Source: a virus
Virus record (IMG/VR): IMGVR_UViG_3300045988_154277
Direction: 5' to 3' (one strand)
Length of the DNA stretch: 64,000 bases
This document shows positions 2,036 through 55,640 of this stretch, piece after piece. Under the pieces are notes generated by a model. The model was not told the DNA's origin. It did no database searches and saw only the letters and a list, made by a program, of their open reading frames with translations. Position numbers and translations under genes: made by a program. Within the stretch, counting starts at the first letter, position 1, and each line of letters opens with the position of its first letter.

Positions 2036-2057
2036 CTAGGTAATATATACGTGAAAG
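2036..2057 (-). promoter_or_regulatory. recurring AT-rich promoter-like motif (CTAGGTAATATATACGTGAAAG; minus-strand reading TTTCACGTATATATTAC)
   Basis: One of at least 7 intergenic copies of the same 17-20 nt motif. Here it points toward the minus-strand 354-aa gene. Confidence 0.4.
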
Positions 2058-2066
2058 AACATAGAA

Positions 2067-2100
2067 CTACACTAGATTGGGATATCCCAATCTAGTGTAG
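2067..2100. terminator. perfect 16-bp stem / 3-nt loop intergenic hairpin
   Basis: CTACACTAGATTGGGA tat TCCCAATCTAGTGTAG between two minus-strand genes; no U-tract. Confidence 0.5.
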
Positions 2101-2105
2101 ATATG

Positions 2106-3146
2106 TCATTTCTTCTCAGTATCAGGGGTTGGTTGTTCTTCAGGTTGAGCTTCCTGTTGTGGTTGTTCTTCCTGCGTAGCAACACTGTAGCCCTGTGCTT
2201 TCTTGGCGATCTCAGTAACCAACCTACGGAACCGTTGTTCCACAGATTTCAGGTACTTGATATCGTTGAAGATGATCCTGGTGTACACGAATACAGCTTG
2301 TGATTCAACGGTAGGTCCAGCATCATTACGGAACCTGTTGTTCGTAAGACCAGAGACCAGTTTACGAGTCTCCTTACTTACAGTTTTCAGGTTGGTAAGA
2401 ACACTGTTGCCTGCTTGCATACAAGATTTGATCTTGCTATCCACTTCTACGAACCTATCGTACGACGTGAATCCAAGCGTCTGTAGGGAAGACATCTTGC
2501 GTTGACGATCTTCGTAGGGTGTTTGATAGTTGGGACCAACCTTCATACCACCCGCTGGAACTTTTGAGTTGAACCTCTGCAGATATGTTGCACGTAAGCT
2601 ATCGATCGGAGCCGTTGGGAGAGACGGTTTCACCACATCATCGTACGTTACCTCGAAGTGTTTCTGCACGATCTCACACGTCTTGATAAAGCGAGAAGCA
2701 GAGGTCGAATGGAACTTCTCATTCTGCATCGACTCGACTTTGTCTTTGATGAACGCGAGTTGCTTCGTGTAGGAACGTTGACTACGAGAGAAGAACGCTT
2801 CTGCGAAATCCAACACCTTGGAGACGATCGTCTGCAGAGCGTGAATGAACGCAGTGATCCCTTTCTTCACAACACCACCGATTTCGCGAGCGGTTACTTC
2901 GATACCATACTGCGCAAGTGTATTACCGTAAAGAGACTCCACAGAACGAGTATACCCGTACTTCTGGATCACAGTATCGAGTATGGTGAGATGCTCGATC
3001 GAGTGCAAGATCTCTTCTGCTGTTCGGATCGCGTCTTCTGCTTCATTTATGGTGCTAACGAGCATACACTCAGCAGCGATCGCGTCCTCGATTGAGAAGA
3101 GATGGTCGTTCTTGGACGGAACGAGATTTTCAAATCCAAAACGCAT
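2106..3146 (-). CDS. helical protein, paralog family member A (346 aa)
   Basis: N-terminus MRFGFENL... and KYGYTRSVESLYGNT block are shared with the 246-aa and 323-aa neighbours. Confidence 0.6.
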   Translation of the reverse strand: MRFGFENLVPSKNDHLFSIEDAIAAECMLVSTINEAEDAIRTAEEILHSIEHLTILDTVIQKYGYTRSVESLYGNTLAQYGIEVTAREIGGVVKKGITAFIHALQTIVSKVLDFAEAFFSRSQRSYTKQLAFIKDKVESMQNEKFHSTSASRFIKTCEIVQKHFEVTYDDVVKPSLPTAPIDSLRATYLQRFNSKVPAGGMKVGPNYQTPYEDRQRKMSSLQTLGFTSYDRFVEVDSKIKSCMQAGNSVLTNLKTVSKETRKLVSGLTNNRFRNDAGPTVESQAVFVYTRIIFNDIKYLKSVEQRFRRLVTEIAKKAQGYSVATQEEQPQQEAQPEEQPTPDTEKK

Positions 3147-3172
3147 ATCGATCCTTCTTGTTTAAAACTAGA

Positions 3173-3203
3173 CATAGGAGGAGGAACAAGACCTCCTCCT
3201 ATG
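3173..3203. terminator. 12-bp stem intergenic hairpin
   Basis: CATAGGAGGAGG aacaaga CCTCCTCCTATG. Confidence 0.45.
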
Positions 3204-3228
3204 TCAAAGTTCATATAAGAGTTACAGC

Positions 3229-3969
3229 TTACTTAGCCGCGTTCTCTTCCGGAGCAGCTTGGTCAGCATTCTTGTCTTTCGACTTGTCGGCACCACCTGC
3301 ACGCTTCGCGGCAGCGATGAACGAGTTGGCAACTCGGATGACGTTTCTGTCGTCCTCGACCGCCTTCTTGATGGCATCACGCAGCTGTTGAATGTATTCA
3401 TCAGTAGCTGCATTCTGCGCTTCTTTGAGCTGATCTTCAAGTTGACTTTTTGTCTTCCCAAGTTCATTGACAGCCTGCTTCAGTTTATTGAGAGCAGCCG
3501 TGAACTTACCTTCATCGGTAATCTTACCATCGATCACAGATCCGCCTTTGATTTCGAACGGACCTTTGAACTTCAGCGAGTTCAGAGCAGAAGCAGTACG
3601 TTCTTTCTGGTTGAAGAGCCATTTGAAGAAATTCGTAACTTTCGCCCAAAGATCCTTCAGGATCTGCTTGATCTTCTGACCGAGACCCTTCTTGGCCTCT
3701 TCGTTCTCAGCTTCCATAGAAGCGGCGCTGCTGAAGTTCTCTCCATAGAGAGCTTCCAGAGAACGAGTCACGCCATATTTCTTGATGCACTTGCTGATGG
3801 CGTTGACGTTGTCATAAGTGCGAACCGTAGCGGTGAGTTCATGACACAGATCCAGGACATCGGAAGCAGCCTGATTGAACTGGATCAGAGAATCCAGGTA
3901 CTCATACGAAAGTTCACCAGAAGCTTTCGGAGCCATGCCCAGATTTTCAAAACCAAGATTGATACCCAT
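3229..3969 (-). CDS. helical protein, paralog family member B (246 aa)
   Basis: MGINLGFENLG... and KKYGVTRSLEALYGEN; paralog of the 2106-3146 product. Confidence 0.6.
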   Translation of the reverse strand: MGINLGFENLGMAPKASGELSYEYLDSLIQFNQAASDVLDLCHELTATVRTYDNVNAISKCIKKYGVTRSLEALYGENFSSAASMEAENEEAKKGLGQKIKQILKDLWAKVTNFFKWLFNQKERTASALNSLKFKGPFEIKGGSVIDGKITDEGKFTAALNKLKQAVNELGKTKSQLEDQLKEAQNAATDEYIQQLRDAIKKAVEDDRNVIRVANSFIAAAKRAGGADKSKDKNADQAAPEENAAK

Positions 3970-4123
3970 GAGTATTCACTCCTGTAAAGATGTTTGTACG
4001 TACATTTGCGAGATGATCATCACACACAAGAAGTCAAATGTAGTCTGAAGAGATAGACATACACGTAACCTCAACACATATGATGTCACCGTGAGACATG
4101 TTACAACTACACACTGTCTTGGT

Positions 4124-5050
4124 TTAGGAGTCCGTATCCATGAGACCGTACGGATCATTCGTCGCCACATCAAGATCTGATGCTGTGGTCGTAATGTCCT
4201 TTTCTGATACATTGCGTGTCTTGAAGTACCGGTAGTCCCACGTTACTTCCTGAAGCTTCTTGTACAGTACATTCAGGATCTTCTTAACACAGTTGTAGTA
4301 CCGTGTATCATCTGTTGTCAGTTCAAACTCTTGCATACACAGCGTGACAAGACGATACGTGTCGTGTTTACAAATGTATGTGTCTCGATTCCACACGGGG
4401 TAGTTTGCATTCAGAAACTCACAACAAGTACAATACTTATCTTCCGTGTAAGTATCCGGATCTTGTAAGTAACGTGTCAATGCTCTGTTGTATAGCGTCT
4501 TATAGAACTTATCGACAACATGGTTGATCGCGGTTGTGTAAAGGGCATGCTCTTTTTGGAACCCTTTATCGGTCGCTTCTTGTTCGTCTTTGAACGTATC
4601 AATGCGAGCATCTGCACAACAACCAAATATCTTCTTGATGATACCAGGTTCTGCGATGTGTTGTGTGCAAAGATCCATCACCCATTCAGGTAGCGGGTGA
4701 AACGCAGGTTGTTGTAGTGACTTTTGATTGGGTTCGTAGAACGATTTGGCGATACTTTCTACGGTGTATGGTATACAGTCGGGGTTGTCGATATGACATG
4801 TTCTAACCCAAGGGTCGCTGTTTTTATGTAGCCGATACATGATCTGGTCAACTACTGCTTCGTAGTTGATTTGCTCCGGTACAGGGATGATCTCTTTGAG
4901 AAACGTTATCAGAGTGTTTCGAAAGTTAGCGTCTACGGACGCTGGTATCTTGACATACCCATAGTTTCTCCAGACACTGTTCGCAAGTGGTTGGATCAAC
5001 CCGTCGATGGTTGCTTGGAATTCTTCTCTTGTTACGATGTTGTTCTCCAT
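4124..5050 (-). CDS. hypothetical protein (308 aa; start moved to MENNIV)
   Basis: ORF 4124-5083. Internal ATG at 5050 has a GAGGAG RBS and removes the overlap with the upstream gene. Confidence 0.5.
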   Translation of the reverse strand: MENNIVTREEFQATIDGLIQPLANSVWRNYGYVKIPASVDANFRNTLITFLKEIIPVPEQINYEAVVDQIMYRLHKNSDPWVRTCHIDNPDCIPYTVESIAKSFYEPNQKSLQQPAFHPLPEWVMDLCTQHIAEPGIIKKIFGCCADARIDTFKDEQEATDKGFQKEHALYTTAINHVVDKFYKTLYNRALTRYLQDPDTYTEDKYCTCCEFLNANYPVWNRDTYICKHDTYRLVTLCMQEFELTTDDTRYYNCVKKILNVLYKKLQEVTWDYRYFKTRNVSEKDITTTASDLDVATNDPYGLMDTDS

Positions 5051-5063
5051 AATGCTCCTCTTG

Positions 5064-5453: not shown

Positions 5454-5534
5454 TGTTTCTAATTCCTTTCTACGTATGCATGCTATGATCACTTGACATT
5501 CAATATATTTAACCAATCTAACATGAGGTGTAAG

Positions 5535-7590: not shown

Positions 7591-7618
7591 GATAGGTCTC
7601 CTGATTTTAGCATAGGAT

Positions 7619-7651
7619 GGAACCATGGGTGAGATACTCACCCATGGTTCC
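7619..7651. terminator. 15-bp stem / 3-nt loop hairpin
   Basis: GGAACCATGGGTGAG ata CTCACCCATGGTTCC. Confidence 0.55.
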
Positions 7652-7658
7652 AGATGTA

Positions 7659-39379: not shown

Positions 39380-39437
39380 TCAGTTTAAATATACGCTTAT
39401 TGACTGGGGCGGGGTAACCGCTGCTCGCATCACAGGG

Positions 39438-42884: not shown

Positions 42885-44537
42885 CTAGTGTATCGTAGAC
42901 CAGACTTTGCCGATCGCACCGATGTGATTGTGCTCCACAGCCATCTGACGGGTTGTGGTCGTACCGTAGATGTCGAAACTGACACCCATGTATTTCACAA
43001 TGTTGATCATATCGGTAACCAACGCTTTATCGATCTCCTGATCCTCGGTCAGGTACGAAGTGATATCAGCCAATACCGTGTCGATATCATCCACCATCTT
43101 GACAAGGCTATTCGTCGCTGCCAGATATTTCTCCATATCCAGAAGAGAGAGTCTGACATCTTTAAACTCCTTCATCGTCTTGTAAACGGACATGAACTTC
43201 ACATCCATCGGAGTTTTTTGTTCTGTGAAGACTTTATCCACAGAGCCTTTCAGAGAGTTCAAACTGGTCTCTCTCTGTTTGACAAGGTTCACCATGGGAA
43301 CCAGAGTGCTCTTATAATCTTCACTCCGCATCAACTTCCTTCTGAAATCGATCAGAGCAGCCAGAACACCCTGTCCATACGCCTGGATATCCAGCACTGT
43401 ATAGACTTGTTCCAGACTCATACAAGCGTTCTGGTAGGTACCTTTCATACCGCTTGGGATGGGGATATCTAGGTTCGTTACCTGAGTGATCGGAATGCTC
43501 TCGGCTTTCAGACACATCGTCGTATGCGATTCGTAGTAATACCGCATCTCAGAACGCTTCAGGTCTTTGTAGAATTTGAAGATATTGGTCTTGAATGTAT
43601 TGCCGATCTTGAGGAACACATCGGTCACACCGATGAAGATCTTCAGAAGACCGGTTCCGATCCCTTCGGTAGATGTGGTATCCAGAGTACGGAGGTAATT
43701 GTGATAGACTTCCAGCTTACGAAGGTCCTGATAAAGAGCATCACTGTTCCAAGGAATGAACGGATACTTGGATGCACAGACACGGAGGATCTCTTCTGAT
43801 TTCTCGGACTTATCATCCTTGTCATCTTCTTCATCTTCAGGATCCTCTTCCTCAGAGTCATCTTTATCTTTGTCTTTCTTGGACTTAGACTTCTTGTCTG
43901 ACTTATCATCTTCGTCGTCAGACTCTTCATCATCGTCCTCTTTGTCCTCATCGGAATCTGTATCATCATCTTCGTCAGAATCATCCTTATCATCAGAATC
44001 ATCATCATCGTCTTCTGACTCATCCTCCGGGTCAGGCTCTTCGTCTTCTTCATCCTCAGAGTCCTCATCCTTCTTGGATTTGGCGTTGCGGTAGATATAT
44101 CGTTCTTCAGACTTCTCTTCTTCGTCTTCCGGCTCATCGTCAGAAGTGTCTTCACCACCAACAAGATCCCATACTTTATCGACGAACGCTTTGATTTCAC
44201 GACCATCCTTCTTGATCCAGTCGTATTCAACATCGATCTTGATATCAGTATCGTACTTGTCTTTCAGTTCCTTCTCGATCTTCTTGAGAACATCAGACCA
44301 GTCGTCTTTTGTAAGGCTTTCCAGAGTGGAGAAATTGTGTTCTTCCTTTACAAAATCAGGACCATCGGAATAGTCGTTCAATAGTTTACAGATCATCCGA
44401 GAGATGACGTAACGGTTGAGCTCTTTGTCATCCTCTTCCTTCTCATCGGAACTCTCTTTCTCATTCCGAAGGTGCGTTGGTCGGATCGGTCGAAGACCTT
44501 CCGTCCCTAACGCAGACAAGCTAAACTTGGAAATCAT
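42885..44537 (-). CDS. protein with an approximately 130-aa Asp/Glu-rich low-complexity region (550 aa)
   Basis: DSEDEEDEEPDPEDESEDDDDDSDDKDDSDEDDDTDSDEDKEDDDEESDDEDDK... Confidence 0.55.
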   Translation of the reverse strand: MISKFSLSALGTEGLRPIRPTHLRNEKESSDEKEEDDKELNRYVISRMICKLLNDYSDGPDFVKEEHNFSTLESLTKDDWSDVLKKIEKELKDKYDTDIKIDVEYDWIKKDGREIKAFVDKVWDLVGGEDTSDDEPEDEEEKSEERYIYRNAKSKKDEDSEDEEDEEPDPEDESEDDDDDSDDKDDSDEDDDTDSDEDKEDDDEESDDEDDKSDKKSKSKKDKDKDDSEEEDPEDEEDDKDDKSEKSEEILRVCASKYPFIPWNSDALYQDLRKLEVYHNYLRTLDTTSTEGIGTGLLKIFIGVTDVFLKIGNTFKTNIFKFYKDLKRSEMRYYYESHTTMCLKAESIPITQVTNLDIPIPSGMKGTYQNACMSLEQVYTVLDIQAYGQGVLAALIDFRRKLMRSEDYKSTLVPMVNLVKQRETSLNSLKGSVDKVFTEQKTPMDVKFMSVYKTMKEFKDVRLSLLDMEKYLAATNSLVKMVDDIDTVLADITSYLTEDQEIDKALVTDMINIVKYMGVSFDIYGTTTTRQMAVEHNHIGAIGKVWSTIH

Positions 44538-44594
44538 AGTTGTATTCCTTTTGTTATGTTGTTTCTATTCGAGTCATACGATGGCTCAAGATAC

Positions 44595-44635
44595 GATCTA
44601 TAGGTAGGGTAGTTACACTACCCTACCTATAGATC
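44595..44635. terminator. 18-bp stem hairpin
   Basis: GATCTATAGGTAGGGTAG ttaca CTACCCTACCTATAGATC. Confidence 0.55.
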
Positions 44636-44640
44636 ACGTG

Positions 44641-46323
44641 TTAAGCGAATGGATCGTACGTGTCTTCCTCTGCAGGAGGTTGTTCTGCTTCTACAACCGT
44701 TGGTTCTTTCGGTTCCTCTTCTTTGGGGAGAGGTTCCTGAGGAACAGGTTGTTCTGATTGAGGTTCCGTTACATTCTGGAAAAGCGCCAACCCTCCAGCA
44801 TCCGTCACCTCATTGTTGTTGTCGCTGTAGATATCGGGCACACTAGTGTCCTTATCCAAGTAGATATCATCCATGATACCTAGAACAGGACCCATGAACC
44901 GATACGCACAGTACCGATCCTCCTTCGGCGGCGGCGGCTCATCACGGTGTTTACTCCAACATAACGTCAAATAAGGCACTTCGTTCATGTTCCTTTCGAT
45001 ATACATGAAGATCAATCCAGTCAACTCCCTTCGGAATCCTTTACAGTCACCGAGATGGATCGCACCGTAGGATTTGACAACGTTGGCTTGACCACTTGCG
45101 TTTAACTCCTCAGCACGACTATCCAACTGAAGACCATGCAGCATCAGACAGTTGTTCCTCTGTCCGTAGTTGTACATCTTCTGCATCAACTTCTGAAGAC
45201 GTTTGGCTGGATTGTCACTATCCTCATCTACTCTCATCAGTGTGATGTAGTCGATGACCGTTGCAACAACCTCGTAGCCTTTCCTTTTCAGTTCTTCCAT
45301 CTCTTTCACGAAGTCTGAGTAACCGAAGTTCTCATCCTTACGCATCATGATGAACTTGATCCCGTTGCTGTTGAAATACCGAGCAACTTGCTCAGCCATC
45401 TCGCGCATCGGCATGTCTTTGGGAGGCTCTGCTCTCATCGCATTAACATAAGCCGACACCACCATACTGTTGGCGTTCTCAGGAACTTCGTTCTCCAAGG
45501 AGATCAATACCACACATGGGATCATACCAGGTTGTACATCTACTTTCCCGTAGACCGTACACCATCTGGCACAGTTCATCAACATCTGAGATTTATAGTT
45601 GTGAGAGGATGCTGCGAATGCCCACGACTCTCCTCTCTTGAATCCTCTGTCTTCTCCCAACATCCGGTTCAATGCCTTCAACCCAGTTGGGAATACATTG
45701 GATTTCCTCTTGTTCCTGTAGTTATCCAGAGACTTCATCAGAGCATTCGCATCTGTCATATCGACGTTGTCGATCGTCTCTGACATCCCGAATCCACCCT
45801 CTGCTGACTTCACCAGATCTCTTGCATATTCCGCCACATCATTCAAGATGATGTCGTTTGTCATGTCATCCGTTGGGTTGAATTGACTTCCACGGATCTG
45901 CATCTTCTGGATGATTCCCATGGACTTCGCCATCGCAACCCAGTTGCTCATCCTGTGAAGCAACCGAGTGACGCGCCGATCACTGATCTCTTCACTGTTT
46001 AGAAGAAGACTGCTTAACTGCTCCACGATCACGGGATCTTTCTGAGCCAGATCACTCTTCTTCAGTTTCACCACGATACGATTGATCTCTGCTTTCTTGC
46101 TGAGATCCGCATCTCTGGTGACGATATCCTGGATGATCTCGAAGAACACATCCAGATCTTTGTTCAGGATCTCTGGCTTCTTCTTCTTCGTAGCCATGTA
46201 GATATCCAAGATCGAGCCCAATGTCTCCTTGGAGTTGTCTGATTTAGAAAATGCTGCCAGACATACAGCATCCAACATGAAATCCGTATTAATCGCTATC
46301 ACGAGTTCACCTACCTCTTCCAA
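44641..46323 (-). CDS. DnaB-family replicative helicase-like protein (560 aa) with degenerate Walker A
   Basis: TGLKALNRMLGEDRGFKRGESWAFAASSHNYKSQ versus DnaB TGFTELD...IIVAARPSMGKT; VVLISLENE versus LIFSLEMP; VIDYITLMRVDEDSDNPAKRLQKL versus MIDYLQLMRVPALSDNRTLEI. Confidence 0.5.
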   Translation of the reverse strand: MEEVGELVIAINTDFMLDAVCLAAFSKSDNSKETLGSILDIYMATKKKKPEILNKDLDVFFEIIQDIVTRDADLSKKAEINRIVVKLKKSDLAQKDPVIVEQLSSLLLNSEEISDRRVTRLLHRMSNWVAMAKSMGIIQKMQIRGSQFNPTDDMTNDIILNDVAEYARDLVKSAEGGFGMSETIDNVDMTDANALMKSLDNYRNKRKSNVFPTGLKALNRMLGEDRGFKRGESWAFAASSHNYKSQMLMNCARWCTVYGKVDVQPGMIPCVVLISLENEVPENANSMVVSAYVNAMRAEPPKDMPMREMAEQVARYFNSNGIKFIMMRKDENFGYSDFVKEMEELKRKGYEVVATVIDYITLMRVDEDSDNPAKRLQKLMQKMYNYGQRNNCLMLHGLQLDSRAEELNASGQANVVKSYGAIHLGDCKGFRRELTGLIFMYIERNMNEVPYLTLCWSKHRDEPPPPKEDRYCAYRFMGPVLGIMDDIYLDKDTSVPDIYSDNNNEVTDAGGLALFQNVTEPQSEQPVPQEPLPKEEEPKEPTVVEAEQPPAEEDTYDPFA

Positions 46324-46374
46324 AGCTCATGCTATGCTTAAATGTCAACCCCTTACTATAGAGGTATCCAAATC

Positions 46375-48147
46375 ATGCAATCTTTTATCAAGTTCATCGC
46401 GGATGTCACCATCCCTTATAATCCGGACTGGTTGGCAGATCCGGACAAGATGTTCCGTTCGCTTAGCACAGAAGGTAAAGTATACTTCCTGATGCAACAA
46501 GCGATCGCCCTCAACTACCTTGAGCGAGTATACGATAAGGGTCTTCCGACACTTATTAAAGAGTATAAAGAGAAGGTCACCAAATGGTGGCTGGTTGACC
46601 TCGAATATGAGGTCAATGCTCTTGAGACAGACGATCCTTCTCTGGAGAAGGAAGGGTATCTCAATATCCTGGCTCTTCTCGATGATGACCGTAGCAACCA
46701 GATCGATGCGGAACGCTGTTCCGATTGGGCATCTCATCAACGAGAAGATGCTCCTGTTGCTATGAAAAATACATTCTATAGTCCATACTTGCGTTTCGCT
46801 GAACGAGCCCGCAGGTCGGAGACGTTGGCAGACGGTGAACATGCCCAGAGCACAGAGTCATTCAGTGTCCCTGGTCCAGTCACTCTTCCGACGTTCACCT
46901 ACCAGGGAGCGATCCTCAGCGTGCGTCACGATTTGAGTTATTCCGGTTATAAGTACGATTACACATCCAATCACAAATACGGGACATCCCAGTATGGATT
47001 GGGTGTTGGGTCCATCTTCTCCTACTGGAGAGGATATAACTGGACTGACTTCAAATTTAATAGTGTGGTGGGAGTGCTCGCTGCACAGTGTTTGGATTTG
47101 GATACAAACACCTTCCCAAACAACTCGCTCCTTTGGGCTTACTACTTCGTTTACTGCAAAGTGACCGGATGGCAACCGAAAGGTGCAAGTGAATCGAATT
47201 ACATTTGGCTCTCGTCTGAATCGAACTTTCTCAGACGCTGTGTGCTCAGCTTCTTGATCGATCTTCGTGATCGATACAAGGTCCAGTTTGACGATAGTGA
47301 GCTTCTGGCTCGCTTGATGCAAGGGGATACGGCTGAGGATGCAGATCAACTACACGCATTTCTGAAGGCATCCGAGCCGACAGAAGTAAGTGTCGAGATG
47401 TATCACGCTTTTCAGAAGAGTCCCTTCGCTCGTTTCGACGAGCTCGACTTGATCAAACATAAGAGGTTGTCTAGTCGTGAGTTGATGGATGCTACCATCG
47501 ATGCGAGGAACTCGGAAACGGACCCATCCGACACCCAGCAGGATGATGATTCAACATCGGGTAGATCCCGTCGTCGCAGAACCAGTAGACCCTCCAGTGA
47601 ACCGAATCTGTCGGACAGCAGCTTCGATCAACTGGATGAAGAGACTGGGATGACGGAAGATCCGGCACAGCCTGATGGTGAAGACGAAGAAGCTGCGGCC
47701 ACTGAAGATCCCAACACTGATGAGTTGTCGGACAACAACTTCGATGAGTTGGATCAGAACATGGACCCGGAAGCTGACGCTACTACTCCTGACGAAGAGC
47801 CGACCGACCCTGAAGGGAACCCTGAGGGCACAGAAGATACAACACACAACACACAACACACACAAGTACCTGATATGCCCGATATGGATGACAAGAAGGG
47901 CGTGAAGCTCGAACTGAGTGCGGGTGAGACCGCAAATTCGGTTCTTTACAGGATAGAGTTGGAGTCGTTCATTGATTCACTCCTAGCGAACTCTCCCAAT
48001 TTCTTGTCAGCACAGAAGGTTGAGCTGTTGAAACGTGTCAAAGCGTACTGGCTCAATCGTCTTTCACCTGAAAGCTTGGTGAACTTGCTGAACTCCATCA
48101 TCAAGTTACCCAAGTATCTTAACATCAACAAGAATAAGGACAAATAA
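46375..48147 (+). CDS. hypothetical protein immediately upstream of the capsid-candidate gene (590 aa; acidic, probably disordered C-terminal half)
   Basis: ORF track starts at 46342; ATG at 46375 has a GAGGT RBS. Contains an AACACAC x3 heptamer repeat at 47841-47861. Confidence 0.5.
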   Translation: MQSFIKFIADVTIPYNPDWLADPDKMFRSLSTEGKVYFLMQQAIALNYLERVYDKGLPTLIKEYKEKVTKWWLVDLEYEVNALETDDPSLEKEGYLNILALLDDDRSNQIDAERCSDWASHQREDAPVAMKNTFYSPYLRFAERARRSETLADGEHAQSTESFSVPGPVTLPTFTYQGAILSVRHDLSYSGYKYDYTSNHKYGTSQYGLGVGSIFSYWRGYNWTDFKFNSVVGVLAAQCLDLDTNTFPNNSLLWAYYFVYCKVTGWQPKGASESNYIWLSSESNFLRRCVLSFLIDLRDRYKVQFDDSELLARLMQGDTAEDADQLHAFLKASEPTEVSVEMYHAFQKSPFARFDELDLIKHKRLSSRELMDATIDARNSETDPSDTQQDDDSTSGRSRRRRTSRPSSEPNLSDSSFDQLDEETGMTEDPAQPDGEDEEAAATEDPNTDELSDNNFDELDQNMDPEADATTPDEEPTDPEGNPEGTEDTTHNTQHTQVPDMPDMDDKKGVKLELSAGETANSVLYRIELESFIDSLLANSPNFLSAQKVELLKRVKAYWLNRLSPESLVNLLNSIIKLPKYLNINKNKDK

Positions 48148-48149
48148 CA

Positions 48150-50387
48150 ATGTCTGCTATTGACAAATACCTGAAGCAGCTTGAAACTGCGTTCGCCAAT
48201 ACTGGCAAAGCTGGTGATCTGGTTGGTATCGGTCGCTCGACGTACGACGCTGTTGGGAAATACCTTACCACCCGCAACATGATCAAGCGTGGCGCCTATG
48301 AACAGATGTCCATCAGCAACGAATCCATGAGCTTCGAAACTGCGATGAACGCGCAGGGCGTCGATGGTCTGAAAGACCTCGTTGAGAGTTGCGGCGTTCC
48401 GCAGGCTTACGTCAAGGACTGCTGCAAGACCATCCTGAACATCATGAACCGTTGCTCGCAGGGTGCGGCCGCTGCTTGGCAGCAGCAGAACCTCCGTGCG
48501 GATCACACGGCCAACGGTCAGGCGGAAGCTCGTCCGCTCTCCTCGATCTACAGCTCCGACGTTGCTGGCATTCTGAACAGCACCGCTGTGGCCGGTCAGG
48601 AAGCGTTCGGTACCAACGTCGATATGGCGGTTCCGGATATGAAGGTTGCCATCACGGTTGCCATCATGGACTTCCATGTCCGTCTGATCCCCCGCGTTAT
48701 GCCGACCCGTTCCACGACTCAGCCGAACGTCTCCTACACCAAGGAGTGGCTGGAAGTTTACGATCTCACCGGCAACACCAAAGACAGCCAGCGTCTCGTT
48801 GACCTGTACGCCGATCCGTCCTTCGCTCGCAATGAGCTGAAACTGATCGAAGTCAACCCGGCCAACGATCCGGAACAGAAGTTCATCAACGGTGATGGTA
48901 CGCTCAAGTTCGGCCCGAAGGCCAACATCCTCGAGCTCTCCACCCGTGAGGACAAATACGGTTACAGCCATATCAACCGCACCGACCTGATCGCGGACAA
49001 CGTCCAGATCAAGTTCGTTCGTGTCGCTCTGACCTTCAACGGTGGCGAAGCGGAATACTTCGACTGCGAAGTTCCGATCAGCAAGAACCGTCTGACCCGT
49101 ATGGTCAACGCCAACGACTCTGCGATGCGCAATGCAGACATCAAGTTCCGTACCTACCTCCGCAAGAGTGCGATGATGGCGAACGGCTCTGCGTCCGGCA
49201 TCCTCTCGAACCTGAGCGACAGCGAAGCGTTCGTCCTTGACTTCAACGTCAAGCCGAGCATCTCTCTGAAGTGGGGTATCGCGGACTGTCTTGCGGACGT
49301 CAGCGTCAGCGTTCGTCACGATATCGACAACGCTCAACTCAGCGGATTCGCGACCTCTCTGATGAGCAGCGGCGCTCTGAGCCTGATCGGTTATGAACTC
49401 GACGCTCGTTTCTCGGAAGAGAACCTGCGCAAGACCTCCATCGCGGTTATGACCCACCGTGTTCCGTTCTCGTTCGATATCCCGATCGGTCGGAACTATG
49501 TGTTCGATTACGCGATCGGTCAGGTCAATGCGGAAGAGAACGCCACCAACCTCACCAAGGTCATCGGTCTCGGTCAGGACAAGGTTGCGCTCGAACTCGG
49601 CATCCGTACCATCGAAGATGTCTACGATCGCATCCGTGCGGTCAGCCCGAACCCGGTCGATCGTCCCGAATATGTCGGCACCAACTATGTTGCTGGCGAC
49701 AAGGTTCGCCCGTCCATCTTCATCGGCGATCTGGATCTGACCAATCTGGAAACCATCCGTGATGCTGACCGTGCTGGCGACATCAAGCAGAAGGCCATCT
49801 CCATGCTGACCGCTGCTACCAGCCGTATCCTTCAGGAGTCCTTCCTGCAGCAGCAGCTCGGTGGTTCGACCACGGCTACCTTCAAGGGTATCACCAGCAT
49901 CGAGATCCTCGGCAACGTCATCGGTATGCCGCACATCCACGACCATATGTCCAAGGATGATGGTCGCAACGTCGGTGACGGTGTGGAATACGTTCTCGTT
50001 CTGCCGAACGGCGTGAAGATCGAGTTCGTGACCTCCACCTTCGACAGCATGCGCGACAAGATCGTCATGTGGCCGACCATCCCGAACAACACCGAAAGTG
50101 AACTGCACTTCGCTCACAACTGGGACTATGGGTGCATGGTTGCCCATTACACCCCGAGTGGTGAAGCGGCTCACCATCGTCTGTTCGGCAACATCCGTGA
50201 ACTGCCGATCGTCGTCAACCCGCTGGGTCTCATCATCCAGGTCAAGGGTATCGAGCTGGCGAACGGTATCGCTCTCGATGGCGTCGTCCGTCCGACCTTC
50301 AACGTCAACGTGGAAGGCTCGGTTGTCACGACTGTCAACGGAACGATCACCACGGCTCCGGAACAGGGTGGCACTGAAGAGCCCTGA
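48150..50387 (+). CDS. highly expressed, codon-recoded 745-aa protein; candidate major capsid protein (alternative: another very abundant structural or shell protein)
   Basis: AAGGA RBS. G+C and codon choice visibly differ from neighbours (CTG, CGT, CCG, GGT, AAC, TTC, ATC, ACC dominate). Size is typical of jumbo-phage major capsid proteins. A full-length antisense ORF (828 aa) is a GC3 shadow. Confidence 0.45.
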   Translation: MSAIDKYLKQLETAFANTGKAGDLVGIGRSTYDAVGKYLTTRNMIKRGAYEQMSISNESMSFETAMNAQGVDGLKDLVESCGVPQAYVKDCCKTILNIMNRCSQGAAAAWQQQNLRADHTANGQAEARPLSSIYSSDVAGILNSTAVAGQEAFGTNVDMAVPDMKVAITVAIMDFHVRLIPRVMPTRSTTQPNVSYTKEWLEVYDLTGNTKDSQRLVDLYADPSFARNELKLIEVNPANDPEQKFINGDGTLKFGPKANILELSTREDKYGYSHINRTDLIADNVQIKFVRVALTFNGGEAEYFDCEVPISKNRLTRMVNANDSAMRNADIKFRTYLRKSAMMANGSASGILSNLSDSEAFVLDFNVKPSISLKWGIADCLADVSVSVRHDIDNAQLSGFATSLMSSGALSLIGYELDARFSEENLRKTSIAVMTHRVPFSFDIPIGRNYVFDYAIGQVNAEENATNLTKVIGLGQDKVALELGIRTIEDVYDRIRAVSPNPVDRPEYVGTNYVAGDKVRPSIFIGDLDLTNLETIRDADRAGDIKQKAISMLTAATSRILQESFLQQQLGGSTTATFKGITSIEILGNVIGMPHIHDHMSKDDGRNVGDGVEYVLVLPNGVKIEFVTSTFDSMRDKIVMWPTIPNNTESELHFAHNWDYGCMVAHYTPSGEAAHHRLFGNIRELPIVVNPLGLIIQVKGIELANGIALDGVVRPTFNVNVEGSVVTTVNGTITTAPEQGGTEEP

Positions 50388-50430
50388 TCTTGGCATAACC
50401 AAGACACTCGTATAACGAGTTAGTATAGGC

Positions 50431-50464
50431 ATCAGGTGTAGTAGGACAACCTACTACACCTGAT
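50431..50464. terminator. 15-bp stem hairpin after the recoded gene
   Basis: ATCAGGTGTAGTAGG acaa CCTACTACACCTGAT; preceded by a small ACTCG tataa CGAGT hairpin. Confidence 0.55.
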
Positions 50465-50477
50465 CCTAGCTATTTGA

Positions 50478-50807
50478 TTAGTTGTATTGTTTTGTAACTT
50501 CGTGGTATTGCAGTTCCATCGAACCTGCATGATGTTGTTGGTAAAGAAGTTGAGCACGATGTATTGTACCACAACAAGTAACTTCCCAATAAGATCGATA
50601 TACATCCATGAGATCAGCGTTTTCATCCATTTCAGCACGCTTCAATTCAACAGAACATTTGGCACATCGGACATTACACACTGCGAATTGATTTTTGGCG
50701 TAAGGGCACAACAACCCAACTCGATCATCTCCTGGTAACTTCTGTACATAGATGTTACCTTTTATATCGATATCGATCCTTTCCGACAACATATCGTATT
50801 TGATCAT
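50478..50807 (-). CDS. Cys-rich zinc-ribbon-like small protein (109 aa)
   Basis: CPYAKNQFAVCNVRCAKC...CCG cysteine pattern. Confidence 0.4.
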   Translation of the reverse strand: MIKYDMLSERIDIDIKGNIYVQKLPGDDRVGLLCPYAKNQFAVCNVRCAKCSVELKRAEMDENADLMDVYRSYWEVTCCGTIHRAQLLYQQHHAGSMELQYHEVTKQYN

Positions 50808-50888
50808 AAAAACCTCCTGTTATAGCAAGCGAAAAAGAAAAGGAGAAGGACGAAATATCCTTCTCCTGTACAGTGGTGCAGGGACCTC

Positions 50889-52703
50889 TTATTTTGAGGT
50901 CTCTACGCTCACACGGTTGGTTGGAACTTGGATCGTTTTTAGGTCCAGATTCAGGTGATGTTGTTCTGCGAACAGACTGAGCATTTCGTCATATCCAGGG
51001 ATGTTGAAATGCTGCTCACAAAGCTTGACTGCATTCTCTACAACGGCTGGATATCTGGAGAAGAACTCGAAGATATACTCAGCGTTCTGTTTGACGATCT
51101 TGTCTGCATACTTCTTCTCTGCTTTGGTCTTCTCTTTCGGTGGGAGAAGATCGATCTCTTCTCTCATCCTTTGTAGTTCCTCGATCGAATATGGACAACC
51201 TGTGATCCAGAGTACCGTAGCCTCTTTTGTCTCACGGGAGATGTTCATCGCGATCGTGATACTGGGATAGAACGAAGTTACATCCAAGTCACAACAGAGT
51301 CGATAGATGCCGGTTGGATCGTCAGACTCCTGCATACAACGACTACCCTTGTATCGCATCAGAGATGGACTGAGTACAGTACCGCCGACGTTGCTGATTA
51401 GTTTATCATAACTCTTCGCCATGGAACCAGATACGGTTCCAGGCACAGCTCCTTTAGATAGGCAATACTCGTAGAACTGTGCTTTTAACTGTACTGTCTG
51501 ATGAGCGAAGTCGTCCAACAGGGATGGTCCTGTCAACATGATCATCGAGGATATGTCGGTTGTGACATGATCTAGGATGTTGGGTTGCAGAACGTCGAAG
51601 CAGTTATATACAGCGTAGCCTACTTTGTCCTTGGTCTGCATCAGGTAGTGAGTTTGATTTGATCCGAACTTCATCTTACCAGCACCCAGGTTCTTCCCAC
51701 AAATATAATCCAATGTGTACATGACCTCACGTCCTTTTACCTTACGGAGTCGTCCATACAGACACATGGGATCCACCCAGTAACTATATCCAGGACATTT
51801 CAAGATATGCCACTTGTCTGCCAGATGTTCCACCTTCCGTTTGTCCTCTTCGAATTTAAACATTCGAAACTCAGGAGGAACATCAGGGTGTGCGAAGAGT
51901 TCAACTGGATCCAACCCACGGAACAGAGCACGTCTTGGGATCCAATCCAATTCGTAAGCATCGTTCCAAGCCAACAAGAAATCTGGTTTACACAGGATCG
52001 CTGTTCTTACGGATTGCTCGATCAACTCTTTCTCATTGGAGCACATGATGAACTTCGGTGTCCACTCTTCTGGGATGAACACTTTTTTGGCTTTGTCATT
52101 GAGCTGACTGTAGATGTTGTTCAACTCAAGATTCCACCGATCCATCAACTCCTGTCTCCAGTTCTCAGATGGTTGGAACCATTCTTGCAAGATCCAACAG
52201 TAGATCGTCCGGGTTTTCCAATCACAGTAACCGTTCAGGATGATCTGCTCATCTCCGAGAACGGAGGTTTCAATATCCATCACTCCGATGTCATAGGTTG
52301 TGATACCCTTCTTCGAAGCTTCGATATACTCCAACTTCATTTGGATCTCAGGATCGATATCTGCTCCATACACATAAGGACTCTCTAAGAGCTTCCGTGT
52401 GTTGATGTAGCCATATGTAGGGTAACCTAACGCTTTCGCTAAGGTCTCTCCCATCTTCTTATACTGACAGATATAGACATCCAGTTCTGACAGTTTTGCA
52501 CTCTCTCGTTTGTTCTCGTAGTTGCGAAGTCCTTTTCTCGCAACCCACACTCGTACCATAGGGTTCCTTACGATGTGTAGTTTGGACTCCAAGGTATCGA
52601 CATCTTTCACCATAGCCACGATCCCATCCATACCGGAAGGATTGTTGGATGGAGGGATATAACAACTGTGGATGAAGTTACAATTCGGTATCGGGTTATA
52701 CAT
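50889..52703 (-). CDS. family B (T4 gp43-like) DNA polymerase, N-terminal part only: exonuclease domain plus palm motif A
   Basis: Exo I YDIGVMDIETS. Motif A DLDVTSFYPSITIAMNISRET versus RB69/T4 DLTSLYPSIIRQVNISPET. ORF ends about 139 aa after motif A with no KxxxNSxYG or YGDTDS. Confidence 0.7.
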   Translation of the reverse strand: MYNPIPNCNFIHSCYIPPSNNPSGMDGIVAMVKDVDTLESKLHIVRNPMVRVWVARKGLRNYENKRESAKLSELDVYICQYKKMGETLAKALGYPTYGYINTRKLLESPYVYGADIDPEIQMKLEYIEASKKGITTYDIGVMDIETSVLGDEQIILNGYCDWKTRTIYCWILQEWFQPSENWRQELMDRWNLELNNIYSQLNDKAKKVFIPEEWTPKFIMCSNEKELIEQSVRTAILCKPDFLLAWNDAYELDWIPRRALFRGLDPVELFAHPDVPPEFRMFKFEEDKRKVEHLADKWHILKCPGYSYWVDPMCLYGRLRKVKGREVMYTLDYICGKNLGAGKMKFGSNQTHYLMQTKDKVGYAVYNCFDVLQPNILDHVTTDISSMIMLTGPSLLDDFAHQTVQLKAQFYEYCLSKGAVPGTVSGSMAKSYDKLISNVGGTVLSPSLMRYKGSRCMQESDDPTGIYRLCCDLDVTSFYPSITIAMNISRETKEATVLWITGCPYSIEELQRMREEIDLLPPKEKTKAEKKYADKIVKQNAEYIFEFFSRYPAVVENAVKLCEQHFNIPGYDEMLSLFAEQHHLNLDLKTIQVPTNRVSVETSK

Positions 52704-52750
52704 AAGCGTTCCTTTTCGTTGTTCGTCAAAGTATCGTTCGAAGTGCTTAC

Positions 52751-52795
52751 TTAGTAATATATACGTAAGATAGGGCTGACCCTATCTTACGTATA
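52751..52795 (-). promoter_or_regulatory. promoter-like motif copy (TTAGTAATATATACGTAAGA) fused to a 16-bp stem hairpin
   Basis: Motif family; TATACGTAAGATAGGG ctga CCCTATCTTACGTATA; upstream of the polymerase gene. Confidence 0.4.
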
Positions 52796-52802
52796 CACTA
52801 GT

Positions 52803-53273
52803 TCAAAGCTGTTGTACGTCAGCATCTCGCAGATCGATCTCAACCTTCTTTGGTTGAAACGCTTGGCTCAATGTTGCTTCCATCTTGGGATCATCCAGTT
52901 CCACATGGAACGGGTCTCCCAAACACGCTTTCCCTCTACGGTCCATCACGAGTCCTTGGAACTCAAGATTCGTCAACTGCATAAACTGAACCGTGTGGTT
53001 GTTCCCTGAATCATAGAGCCCACGATCATCCATCGCAGGTAACAGTTTGTGTACCTGGATCGGTACGAGACTCTTATCGTCTTTGGGATTACCAACACAC
53101 ATACATCCTGGTTTCGAGATGGAGATGAAGTTCCACCCAGGATAACGTTTCATGATGTTGAGGAGATACTCTCCGATGTTGTTCATATCAACTGTATCAG
53201 AGGGAGTACGTTTCGGTTCCATCCCTGCAGCTCGTAGAGCGCGCCGTCTCTTCTTCGCTTGTCGTTCGGACAT
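52803..53273 (-). CDS. hypothetical protein with basic N-terminus KKRRRALRAAG (156 aa)
   Basis: ORF. Confidence 0.45.
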   Translation of the reverse strand: MSERQAKKRRRALRAAGMEPKRTPSDTVDMNNIGEYLLNIMKRYPGWNFISISKPGCMCVGNPKDDKSLVPIQVHKLLPAMDDRGLYDSGNNHTVQFMQLTNLEFQGLVMDRRGKACLGDPFHVELDDPKMEATLSQAFQPKKVEIDLRDADVQQL

Positions 53274-53287
53274 GTTTAGATCCTATC

Positions 53288-53842
53288 TCACTTCTGGTTC
53301 AATACATTACAACAGAACGTCCAGTTACACGCGATCGCATCCGCTGAATGTTCTTTCAACTTATATCTTTCGGACTCTTCGAACTGGATCTCCGGGATCT
53401 TGCGGATGGCTTTCTGCACATCCAGTTTACCTGAGTCTCCACGTCCGACTGCTCGTTTGATCACTTTCGGTTGGAAGGTATACAGTTTGATCTGATACGT
53501 CTTCCATAAGAACAACTCGACAGCTGTGATCCAACCCAATAAGGCTGCATACGCTGACGGTCTAAATCGATTAAAGAATGCATCTTCCGAACAGATGTAG
53601 TTCGGTCTGTATTCTGCATAGAGATCACTGACCATCTCTTCTGTCTTCAATAGAGTCAGAAGACGACGTCCACACAATTCCACCATCGGTCGCATGATCG
53701 ACCGATCCAAGTCTTTGGATGGTTCCATCACTCCGTAATCCAAGATCTGGAGTAGATTTTGACCCTTGTAATAATCACCGATCGCCCATCCTGCGAAGGT
53801 GAGTCCGGGGTCGAAGCTTAAGATCCGTACTGCATCCGACAT
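53288..53842 (-). CDS. RuvC-like Holliday junction resolvase (184 aa)
   Basis: ILSFDPGLTFAGWAI (RuvC N-terminal catalytic Asp motif) and EHSADAIA (C-terminal catalytic motif). Confidence 0.6.
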   Translation of the reverse strand: MSDAVRILSFDPGLTFAGWAIGDYYKGQNLLQILDYGVMEPSKDLDRSIMRPMVELCGRRLLTLLKTEEMVSDLYAEYRPNYICSEDAFFNRFRPSAYAALLGWITAVELFLWKTYQIKLYTFQPKVIKRAVGRGDSGKLDVQKAIRKIPEIQFEESERYKLKEHSADAIACNWTFCCNVLNQK

Positions 53843-53868
53843 GATACCTCCTGATCAGGTACCACATC

Positions 53869-54012
53869 GTTATTCTTCGATGTCTTCAAGATCATCGCCT
53901 TCGTTGTTCTCCACTGTGGAAGAACCGGGATCCATCACTTCCAGACTATCGAGAGTCACCTCTTCTTCAGTTGCCTGAGGAGGTTGTTTTTGTTTCTGTT
54001 TCGGCATATGTA
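53869..54012 (-). CDS. possible small acidic protein (47 aa)
   Basis: GGAGAT RBS plus ATG (MPKQKQKQPPQATEEEVTLDSLEV...DIEE); below the ORF-track size cut-off. Confidence 0.3.
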
Positions 54013-54040
54013 CATCTCCGTGTTGATCAAAAAGAAAATA

Positions 54041-54086
54041 GGAGAGGATGCAAGATCCTCTCCTAGTATGGTGAACTCAGTTCACC
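54041..54086. terminator. two consecutive hairpins after the 157-aa recoded gene
   Basis: AGGAGAGGAT gcaag ATCCTCTCCT and GGTGAAC tca GTTCACC. Confidence 0.5.
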
Positions 54087-54088
54087 GA

Positions 54089-54562
54089 TCAGCCATGGAT
54101 CGCCTTGAACGCAGCTTCCACTTCTTTGGCAGCCTGATCCAGAGCTCCGCCTTCCTCAGCCAGACGCTTCGGAACTTTGTGCTGGAACTTCACGGAGACC
54201 ACGCCGTAGTTGTGATGAACTTCGCCGTTCGGATCACGGGGGTTCTTCGTTTCGACATGCTCTTTCATGCCGACAACGATACGACCGTTGCCGAGTCCGG
54301 CTTTGAGAACGCAGTCACGATGATCGTTCTTGACGTGATCCTTGAGGAACCCAACCGAACGTTCGGTGAGAGTGTCGATGGCCGCAGATTCCGCTTTCTT
54401 GAATTCGGCATATTCCGGAATGCCGTTCTCCTTGAAGAACTTGTTCAGTTCATCCTGAGACATGGTGAAATCGCCGTTCGACCGACGGGTGACCTCGCCA
54501 AGTCCTTCGACGTTGTAAGACTTCTGTTCGAATTCCTTCTTCTCTTTCGCTTCTTCGCTCAT
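54089..54562 (-). CDS. second codon-recoded, probably very highly expressed small protein (157 aa)
   Basis: AGGAG RBS; same host-optimal codon style as the 745-aa gene; own promoter-like motif upstream; double hairpin downstream. Confidence 0.55.
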   Translation of the reverse strand: MSEEAKEKKEFEQKSYNVEGLGEVTRRSNGDFTMSQDELNKFFKENGIPEYAEFKKAESAAIDTLTERSVGFLKDHVKNDHRDCVLKAGLGNGRIVVGMKEHVETKNPRDPNGEVHHNYGVVSVKFQHKVPKRLAEEGGALDQAAKEVEAAFKAIHG

Positions 54563-54686
54563 GAGAAAACTCCTGTTTTGATGTTGTTGTCTTTGATGTA
54601 CGCTACCTTATTACCGTAGGTGTCCAGGACTACGGGAAGCTTCACACTAACTTGTGTTCCAGGTTCACTTATCAGGATCTGCTTCA

Positions 54687-54707
54687 TAGTGTTATATATA
54701 CGTAAAT
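54687..54707 (-). promoter_or_regulatory. promoter-like motif copy (TAGTGTTATATATACGTAAAT)
   Basis: Motif family, variant TATATATAAC; upstream of the 157-aa gene. Confidence 0.35.
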
Positions 54708-54859
54708 ATGTTTTGACGTGATTTGACACAAAAGAGAAAGTATGCGAACATATTAATGGAAAGTGTTCTGTCCAGAGAATCACTTCCCAAATTAGTATGC
54801 TAACAAAACAATGATAAGTCAGGATTTCGTTGTAATGTTAGCATATCACTCGTTGTTTG

Positions 54860-55012
54860 TTACTGACGGATCACACAGTCATAAGTGTGACCGGTCAACC
54901 AGACCTCATACTGGATCTGGGCAACGGCACGTTGCATGGCGGTCAACAAATCATCACCACGTGCTAGAAACTCGTTTTTCAGAGTCTCGTATCTGTAGCC
55001 AAACTCAGACAT
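54860..55012 (-). CDS. tiny protein, paralog pair member 1 (50 aa)
   Basis: GAGGAGGTGG RBS plus ATG; MSEFGYRYETLKNEFLARGDDLLTAMQRAVAQIQYEVWLTGHTY... Confidence 0.4.
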   Translation of the reverse strand: MSEFGYRYETLKNEFLARGDDLLTAMQRAVAQIQYEVWLTGHTYDCVIRQ

Positions 55013-55115
55013 AGTTCCACCTCCTCTCGTATGACGTTGTGTGATGCTATCAAGTTACCTGACAATTTGACGGCTCACGGTTGTATGTAATCAGGACGAA
55101 ACTAACAACGAGACA

Positions 55116-55144
55116 CAGAGAGGTAGTGTGTAGCTACCTCTCTG
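55116..55144. terminator. 11-bp stem hairpin
   Basis: CAGAGAGGTAG tgtgtag CTACCTCTCTG. Confidence 0.4.
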
Positions 55145-55242
55145 TACCTTCTATTGTAAGTTCTCCTGTATGTAGTAAAAAAGAATCATCAAGCATCATG
55201 TTCTGAGTCAGGATCAGAACACAATACTTGATGATCGTAGGA

Positions 55243-55262
55243 CTATAGCTAATTAGCTATAG
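55243..55262. promoter_or_regulatory. perfect 20-bp palindrome CTATAGCTAATTAGCTATAG
   Basis: Seen directly; overlaps the stop codon of the 55253-55396 gene. Could be an operator or a terminator. Confidence 0.45.
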
Positions 55263-55396
55263 GTACGTCCTGTTGTACGGACTTCGTACTGTATCTGTGA
55301 CACAGCCAAATTCATCGCATCCAGGATATCGTACCCAGCAGCTACGAATTGGTGATACAATTCATAGTAGCGTTGATGAAACGTCTTCACGTATTC
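55253..55396 (-). CDS. tiny protein, paralog pair member 2 (47 aa, GTG start)
   Basis: AAAGGAGGTG RBS plus GTG; VKTFHQRYYELYHQFVAAGYDILDAMNLAVSQIQYEVRTTGRTYS; shares the AxxQIQYEV block with member 1. Confidence 0.4.
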   Translation of the reverse strand, partial: EYVKTFHQRYYELYHQFVAAGYDILDAMNLAVSQIQYEVRTTGRTYS

Positions 55397-55479
55397 ACCT
55401 CCTTTCTGAGAGTTGAACACAAGTAGGCAGCTTCCTGACAACTGTTCTACCTGTGTTGTGATCTCTTGACTTCAAACAA

Positions 55480-55516
55480 GACACTGTACCGTAGCTCGCA
55501 ACTACGGTACAGTGTC
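55480..55516. terminator. 15-bp stem hairpin
   Basis: GACACTGTACCGTAG ctcgcaa CTACGGTACAGTGTC. Confidence 0.45.
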
Positions 55517-55584
55517 GCTTTCTATCAAGAAACCACAGGGTTGAAAAAGAGAGCGACGATACAGCAAGTGTCGCTCTAAGAATC

Positions 55585-55610
55585 GCGGGTGCACAAACTA
55601 GTGCACCCGC
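55585..55610. terminator. 10-bp stem hairpin
   Basis: GCGGGTGCAC aaactag TGCACCCGC. Confidence 0.4.
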
Positions 55611-55618
55611 ATCTTACA

Positions 55619-55640
55619 CTAAGTAATATATACGTGAAAA
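55619..55640. promoter_or_regulatory. promoter-like motif copy (CTAAGTAATATATACGTGAAAA)
   Basis: Identical core to the copy at 2036. Here it lies 65 nt upstream of a plus-strand gene, so its orientation is ambiguous. Confidence 0.35.

Follow-up and report, generated by a model that had tools for sequence, protein, structure and literature searches.

The 64,000-nucleotide (nt) stretch of viral DNA analyzed here at its full length (the window; IMG/VR record IMGVR_UViG_3300045988_154277) contains seven copies of an AT-rich motif that is very probably an early promoter of the type known from phage phiKZ, read by the virion RNA polymerase (RNAP) of a phiKZ-like jumbo phage. An earlier note on this DNA had put the motif forward as a candidate phage-RNAP promoter of the phiKZ early type, and this proposal is supported by identity with the phiKZ octamer, the spacing of a T-tract upstream of it, the placement of the copies, their conservation in relatives, and the presence of an orthologue of phiKZ gp178. 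The type of element is already known; it is found here in a new, very divergent, uncultured jumbo phage, and no new mechanism is involved.

A recurring motif in intergenic DNA

All of the copies reported in the earlier note were confirmed, including the weaker one at 27272, and they are numbered 1 to 7 by position (Table 1). The consensus is (GTAGTTCA)-N6-7-TTTCACG-TATATATTAC, or in a longer form GTAGTTCA-N6-7-TTTCACG-TA-TATATTAC-N4-(T/A)-G. A 17-mer, GTAATATATACGTGAAA, occurs exactly at 2040-2056 and 55623-55639 and with two to three mismatches at 22895, 52754 and 54691, giving five matches in the window against 0.13 expected. Its 10-nt core, TATATATTAC, is present exactly five times on the minus strand (copies 1, 2, 3, 5 and 7), and single mismatches give the cores TATATATTTC in copy 4 and TATATATAAC in copy 6. 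At one mismatch or fewer, seven cores were found compared with 1.75 expected, a number reached in no shuffle. Copies 3 and 4 have only the core and a partial T-tract in common with the 17-mer. The TTT element lies 6 nt upstream of the octamer TATATTAC in four of the seven copies, the remaining three matching two of the three T, and, both in the window and in relatives, the octamer is preceded at 16-18 nt by a GTAGTTCA or TCA element. A purine is found 6 nt after the core in every copy (G in five, A in two), and serves as a sequence proxy for the start site.

A 19-nt weight matrix scored the seven copies at 21.7-27.7, and the next-best position on both strands of the window (128 kb) at 12.4; this gap is partly circular since the matrix was built from the same seven sites, and the runner-up is the opposite arm of the hairpin that holds copy 5. 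Checks that are independent of the matrix are provided by the shuffle counts for the 17-mer and the core, and by an unbiased count of k-mers recurring across intergenic regions, in which the motif ranks first after the Shine-Dalgarno (SD) sequence.

The octamer occurs five times in the window, always in intergenic DNA and never in coding regions. Intergenic DNA makes up 7.6% of the window and contains all seven cores, an arrangement with a probability of ∼1.5e-8 under uniform placement; both values were computed on our own gene map. The earlier note had reasoned that a promoter should not be equally frequent inside coding regions, and no coding copy was found in the window. Furthermore, all seven copies are on the minus strand and each is followed by a minus-strand gene with a strong AGGAGG-type SD site. 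Only six had previously been thought to point towards such a gene; the seventh, copy 7, precedes a 45-codon gene (55390-55253) behind a long structured leader. From the last C of the motif to the start codon, the distances for copies 1 to 7 are 42, 28, 54, 122, 50, 128, and 232 nt, a range of 28-232 nt that replaces the leaders of 40-150 nt first described.

Conservation of the motif in relatives

Partial sequence was compared for each of two relatives in IMG/VR, contig 142450 (∼95% nucleotide identity) and contig 163688 (66-69% protein identity). Six of the seven copies (2040, 22895, 25930, 52754, 54691, and 55623) have a syntenic counterpart in contig 163688, often with the core TATATATAAC, and the intergenic DNA around these is largely unalignable. 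The partial sequences of the two relatives hold 11 and 8 distinct strong copies (weight-matrix score >17), or 11 and 10 by a looser core pattern. All but one of the strong copies precede an SD-bearing open reading frame (ORF) on the same strand; the exception (L001 6936, in the sequence of one relative) is the orthologue of copy 7, the copy with the long leader.

In the 361-kb contig 163688 (IMGVR_UViG_3300045988_163688), the polymerase locus is found twice, in opposite orientation, at 79697-103020 and 258021-281344. Its length probably results from concatemer formation during assembly and does not represent a genome of 361 kb.

Resemblance to early promoters of other phages

The phiKZ consensus given in the earlier note proved to be correct: it is published as TATATTAC (PMC7058600 Table 2), and in phiKZ DNA, read directly, this octamer lies upstream of PHIKZ005, 006, 031, 036, and 054 among others. 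The phiKZ sites have the form aTTCAAAc-N-TTTAAACAG-TATATTAC-N5-TG, with the TTT-N6 upstream element seen in the window. Early promoters of phiKZ, given as 28-32 sites, are described as read by the virion RNAP (Ceyssens 2014, as cited in PMC7598289, PMC8244752, and PMC10914365). In all jumbo phages that encode RNAPs, the early promoters have an AT-rich element of ∼10 nt centered near -10 (PMC7598289), and a T-rich element is found upstream of -19 (PMC8244752); promoters of phiKZ and 201phi2-1 are conserved at -10, -20, and -30 (PMC11512511, PMC8244752). For phiKZ and phiR1-37, the start site is placed 6 nt downstream of the conserved element in a secondary account (PMC5312081), and the offset used here is taken from such statements in PMC5312081 and PMC7598289.

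The window and phiKZ have the same octamer, preceded in each by a T-tract at a spacing of 6 nt and, ∼16-18 nt from the octamer, by an element that contains TCA (TTCA), and followed closely in each by a conserved purine. In both, the sites are intergenic, co-oriented with genes and strongly biased to one strand, and the genome of the window has an orthologue of gp178. There are also differences. The core in the window is two bases longer (TATATATTAC); the T-tract is separated from the core by CACG or GAAT, compared with AAACAG or GAGAT in phiKZ; the conserved purine is 6 nt after the C rather than 7 nt; the flanks are much less AT-rich, the window having ∼46% G + C and phiKZ 37%; and the polymerase beta subunits are only ∼30% identical.

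Related layouts have been described for other jumbo phages. The arrangement TTT(Y/R)A(R)(R)-N-(T)ATATTA(C/T) is common to 201phi2-1, OBP, EL, and Klebsiella phage N1M2 (PMC7058600 Table 2; PMC11512511), in promoter copies that are mostly predicted rather than mapped, except those of 201phi2-1. The consensus is TTTRARR_BTATATTAC for 201phi2-1 and TTTYARRYAKATATTATY for OBP (PMC7058600 Table 2), and TTTCACGTATATATTAC in the window agrees with the OBP form except at two positions. The last base is C in the window, phiKZ and 201phi2-1, and T in OBP and N1M2. Serratia phage 2050HW (Moabite-like) has an exact match to the 17-mer and, 5 kb away, a second related copy; in records for phages closely related to 2050HW, a nuclear shell protein is annotated inside the matched stretch. 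Among the matches listed in a scan of IMG/VR with a degenerate pattern, most were single ones that are probably due to chance.

The early promoter of AR9, AAATATATATTAT-(6N)-G+1 (PMC5312081), has in common with the window the sequence ATATATATTA, a fixed short distance to a purine start, and a virion-packaged multisubunit polymerase as reader. It differs in that AR9 has uracil DNA and no nucleus, the 3' end of the core is TAT rather than TAC, and the TTTCAC element is lacking. A further comparison is with coliphage N4, which injects a single-subunit virion RNAP that recognizes a DNA hairpin at phage-specific early sites. The motif in the window is instead a linear AT-rich sequence, and its presumed reader a multisubunit polymerase with split beta/beta' subunits; the two systems are analogous rather than homologous.

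The phage and its virion RNA polymerase

As judged from its encoded proteins, the window is part of a phiKZ-like jumbo phage that is metagenomic, uncultured and very divergent. This identification is based on PHROGs, on tblastn searches with the polymerase, and on comparison with phiKZ. No matches were obtained when the nucleotide sequence of the first 25 kb was compared with 50,697 phage records, tblastn of a 537-amino acid (aa) protein found nothing, and a Pfam search with ten proteins returned nothing useful; the phage is therefore far from cultured ones. No tRNAs were found in the window, and no Rfam families at gathering score.

Two parts of an RNAP beta subunit are encoded at 27907-31272 and 32045-33241 (phrog_3148, E 1e-161 and 2e-78). 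In tblastn searches with the polymerase, the best place was the annotated virion RNAP beta in OBP, RAY, and DT01, genomes that hold both polymerases, at 23-30% identity. When compared with phiKZ positions 1-245,000, the predicted spliced beta product matched PHIKZ178 alone (29.7% identity over 1012 aa, E 1.5e-116), which is the virion ("structural head protein") polymerase beta, and gave no match to the non-virion polymerase genes PHIKZ071, 073, and 123. Further phiKZ orthologues are those of gp181, gp182, gp152 (UvsX-like), gp118 (DnaB), gp120 (capsid), gp82 (DNA polymerase), gp165 (SbcC), and gp42, and synteny with phiKZ is seen for DnaB beside gp119-capsid and for gp181-gp182. The capsid protein matches Pfam PhiKZ_MCP, and the capsid gene neighbors the DNA polymerase gene on a 278,450-bp ENA metagenome scaffold that has the exact DNA polymerase protein.

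The beta gene itself is split by two group I introns that contain no ORF (31270-31673 and 31691-32106, plus strand), with a micro-exon of 17 nt (31674-31690) between them. Neither reaches the gathering score of Rfam Intron_gpI, which the first matches at 43 bits (E 1.9e-9) and the second at 21.8 bits (E 0.0045). The first intron is absent from contig 163688 and the second from contig 142450, and predicted splicing that removes both leaves one open frame of 1505 codons. An intron is already known in the virion RNAP beta gene of 201phi2-1 (PMC11512511).

A second motif upstream of virion genes

The AT-rich motif was not found before the virion RNAP beta gene, the capsid operon or the tail-fiber operon, where a different motif, CATG[C/G]TATG, is present instead; for the beta gene this is CATGGTATG at 27866-27874. 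There are seven exact copies of this promoter-like motif in the window compared with 2.1 expected, and each of them falls in intergenic DNA if the gene at 59259 is taken to start at 59304. For six of the seven, the distance to the downstream start codon is 5-44 nt; these include the copies at the virion RNAP beta gene, the capsid operon and the tail-fiber operon. Both relatives retain the motif at syntenic positions. It terminates in TATG, as does the published phiKZ late promoter, in which TATG is the sole conserved feature and the G is +1 (PMC7598289). The two motifs divide the genes into classes, with the AT-rich motif preceding replication, recombination and unknown genes, and the TATG motif preceding virion genes. 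This split by gene type is what the two-polymerase program of phiKZ predicts (PMC13282480).

The start of the gene upstream of the capsid gene is probably an ATG near 46375 (SD TAGAGGTATCC) rather than 46342, because of the spacing from the CATGCTATG motif to the start codon in a relative.

Alternative explanations

The alternative that survives best, itself unlikely, is that the motif is a phage promoter of another temporal class, read by the non-virion polymerase to express middle genes or by both polymerases. Several of the downstream genes function in replication and recombination (DNA polymerase, RuvC-like) and would be middle genes in many phages, mixed promoter classes are reported for some genes of 201phi2-1 and phiKZ (PMC11512511, PMC8244752), and timing in the present phage is drawn from sequence analogy. 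However, for middle promoters of phiKZ only a weak motif, AT-rich or TACT and centered near -22 to -24, has been published, and for late ones TATG (PMC7598289, PMC8244752), neither of which the motif resembles; its octamer is identical to one that is experimentally early in phiKZ, and a separate TATG-type motif is already present at the virion-gene operons.

Recognition by the host RNAP, with TATATT acting as an AT-rich -10-like box for a host sigma factor, is very improbable. TATATT does match TATAAT at five of six positions. Against this, there is no TTGACA-like hexamer at 16-18 nt, the 10-nt core is far more uniform than is usual for host promoters, and the conserved T-tract is just 6 nt upstream of the octamer. 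Phages of the phiKZ type also transcribe independently of the host polymerase (PMC13282480). No sigma-70 promoter was called at any of the seven copies in a scan of the motif strand, which bears out the remark in the earlier note that the motif is unlike a sigma-70 -35/-10 pair; a sigma-70 promoter was rejected on these grounds. Of the three stretches of the window that were scanned, two are poor in sigma-70-like sites (16 compared with 29.8 expected in 20001-40000, and 12 compared with 28.5 in 44001-64000; the first stretch has 19 compared with 23.1), consistent with a phage that makes no use of the host RNAP, and the halved frequency in those two stretches may reflect avoidance of host promoters.

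It is just as improbable that the motif is not a promoter and acts instead as a signal in RNA, such as an AU-rich processing site between cistrons, or as the site of a DNA-binding protein: strand-specific, intergenic placement would be equally expected of an RNA signal, and copy 3 has no upstream terminator and could sit inside a read-through transcript, but three copies follow or overlap long hairpins that end transcription units (2067-2100; 52755-52800), where a processing site is unexpected. In addition, copy 7 has no minus-strand gene upstream, the region around it being divergent; the motif does not form a palindrome; and its sequence is identical to mapped promoters of relatives.

Some observations count against an early promoter of the phiKZ type read by the virion polymerase. 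Copy 4 is the weakest and is degenerate within the window; it is identical in relative L132 and has decayed further (TATATATGTC) in contig 163688. A 36-nt matrix made from seven phiKZ sites places only four of the seven copies in the top eight of the window, indicating that flanks outside TTT-N6-TATATTAC differ between the two phages. In phiKZ, TATATTAC is missing from the DNA immediately before PHIKZ082, the DNA polymerase orthologue, and regulation of orthologous genes is therefore not conserved one for one. Of the virion polymerase, the window holds beta only; its other subunits and the non-virion polymerase were not seen there. Finally, we infer binding of the polymerase to the motif, and the positions of start sites and early timing are assigned by analogy. 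The 36-nt phiKZ matrix was discarded as a detector, its flanks being too phage-specific to recover all copies, and the TTT-N6-TATATTAC architecture was used instead.

Proposed mechanism and significance

In the mechanism proposed for these promoters, a multisubunit RNAP, with its beta subunit encoded at 27907-33241, would be packaged in the virion and injected with the DNA. It would bind a three-part promoter of ∼37 bp, in which an AT-rich, -10-like core (TATATATTAC) is preceded by a T-tract (TTTCAC, 6 nt before the octamer) and by a -30 element (GTAGTTCA). RNA synthesis would begin at the purine ∼6 nt downstream of the core, with no need for the host RNAP or for new protein synthesis. Each copy is predicted to head a minus-strand transcription unit, and together these would encode the DNA polymerase, a RuvC-like resolvase, an HD phosphohydrolase, small proteins and products of unknown genes. 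The operons of virion proteins, which have CATG[C/G]TATG, would presumably be read later by the second, non-virion polymerase.

The motif marks genes that are probably the first to be switched on in this uncultured giant phage, many of them of unknown function. Early genes of this kind are the usual place to look for proteins involved in host takeover and anti-defense. The promoter specificity of the injected polymerase appears to be conserved across very deep divergence, which aids the annotation of metagenomic jumbo phages. A more speculative suggestion, to which we give limited credence, is that a lineage with a virion beta subunit ∼30% identical to that of phiKZ keeps the phiKZ octamer and T-tract spacing together with an unusually explicit late motif, CATG[C/G]TATG, and that regulatory switches, not mere compaction, could underlie both the terminator-promoter overlap at 52755-52800 and the terminators that closely follow copy 7. 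If both motifs hold genome-wide, they would provide a complete two-class promoter code that is readable from sequence alone, and temporal classes could be assigned in uncultured chimallivirus-like genomes. Comparison with phiKZ, OBP, and AR9 could then show which polymerase residues read the invariant TATATTA.

Predicted transcription units and neighboring structures

The coordinates of the putative promoters, the genes that they are predicted to drive, and associated features are given in Table 1.

Table 1. Putative early promoters, second-motif copies and associated features in the window.
Feature	Position	Strand	Remarks
Putative early promoter, copy 1	2034-2070	-	Core 2040-2049; T-tract 2054-2056; upstream GTAGTTC element; predicted start ∼2034; predicted to drive 933-1997 (HD-type phosphohydrolase, phrog_19425) and genes after; kept in both relatives
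Perfect 17-bp hairpin	2067-2100	-	Ends upstream operon 2106-3146; descending arm extends into -30 element of copy 1
CATG[C/G]TATG	5479-5487	+	Followed only by an uncertain 45-codon ORF (5535)
CATG[C/G]TATG variant	7611-7619	-	
CATG[C/G]TATG	18772-18780	-	Precedes 17961-18734 and the gene for a 2670-aa gp181-like protein
Putative early promoter, copy 2	22889-22925	-	Core 22895-22904; predicted start G at 22889; predicted to drive 21703-22866, 19961-21664 and 18884-19936, as far as hairpin 18822-18856; syntenic counterparts in relative sequences L132 and L133
Putative early promoter, copy 3	25924-25960	-	Core 25930-25939, immediately after TGA stop (25941-25943) of upstream gene; predicted to drive 24262-25875 (phrog_3209) and 22927-24255; syntenic counterparts in L132 and L133
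Putative early promoter, copy 4 (weaker)	27266-27302	-	Core TATATATTTC 27272-27281; predicted to drive 25941-27149; 17-bp perfect hairpin in leader, 27205-27245
CATG[C/G]TATG	27866-27874	+	Precedes virion RNAP beta gene
Virion RNAP beta gene	27907-33241	+	Exons 27907-31269, 31674-31690, 32107-33241; 1505 aa after removal of two introns
CATG[C/G]TATG	36235-36243	+	Precedes gene 36288
CATG[C/G]TATG variant	44575-44583	-	
CATG[C/G]TATG	46328-46336	+	Precedes capsid-containing operon
Putative early promoter, copy 5	52748-52784	-	Core 52754-52763; predicted to drive DNA polymerase gene 50889-52703 (PHIKZ082 orthologue) and 50478-50807; syntenic in both relatives
21-bp hairpin	52755-52800	-	After gene 52803-53273
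Putative early promoter, copy 6	54685-54721	-	Core TATATATAAC 54691-54700; predicted to drive 54089-54562, then RuvC-like gene 53288-53842 and 52803-53273; syntenic in both relatives
Putative early promoter, copy 7	55617-55653	-	Core 55623-55632; syntenic in both relatives
CATG[C/G]TATG	59225-59233	-	Divergent pair with 59258-59266
CATG[C/G]TATG	59258-59266	+	Divergent pair with 59225-59233

At copy 5, a terminator and a promoter overlap, because the descending arm of the 21-bp hairpin is the upstream half of the promoter. Downstream of copy 7 there is a hairpin (55585-55610), then, at ∼40-75 nt, a terminator-like hairpin with a T-run (55543-55577), and another hairpin (55480-55516), followed by small minus-strand genes at 55390-55253 and 55012-54860. 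Both relatives keep the architecture of the hairpin and terminator-like hairpin ∼10-75 nt downstream of this copy with stem sequences that differ (L001 6955-7010; L002 6960-7040). These structures may form a short leader RNA or an attenuator, and their arrangement is reminiscent of small RNAs that have been described as products of premature termination in phiKZ and 201phi2-1.

The two small genes (55253-55390 and 54860-55012, minus strand) are paralogous, with 45 and 50 codons and the common pattern ...A(V/M)..IQYEV..TG.TY, and both sit behind long hairpins between copies 7 and 6. An 81-nt stretch on the minus strand (54612-54692), beginning in the last two bases of the core of copy 6, is 100% identical in the relative with 66-69% protein identity. 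It folds no better than shuffled sequences (z +1.24) and matches no Rfam family. The stretch overlaps a possible 42-codon ORF, the ATG of which would be upstream of the predicted start site.

Perfect hairpins of 13-20 bp are found at the ends of operons throughout the window (2067-2100, 7618-7652, 18822-18856, 33247-33284, 42241-42276, 44584-44646, 50431-50464, 58278-58327, and 62518-62546). Many of their arms are rich in TAGG or GGGTG and most of the hairpins have no clear T-run; they may represent a conserved family of terminators, as reported for phiKZ and 201phi2-1.

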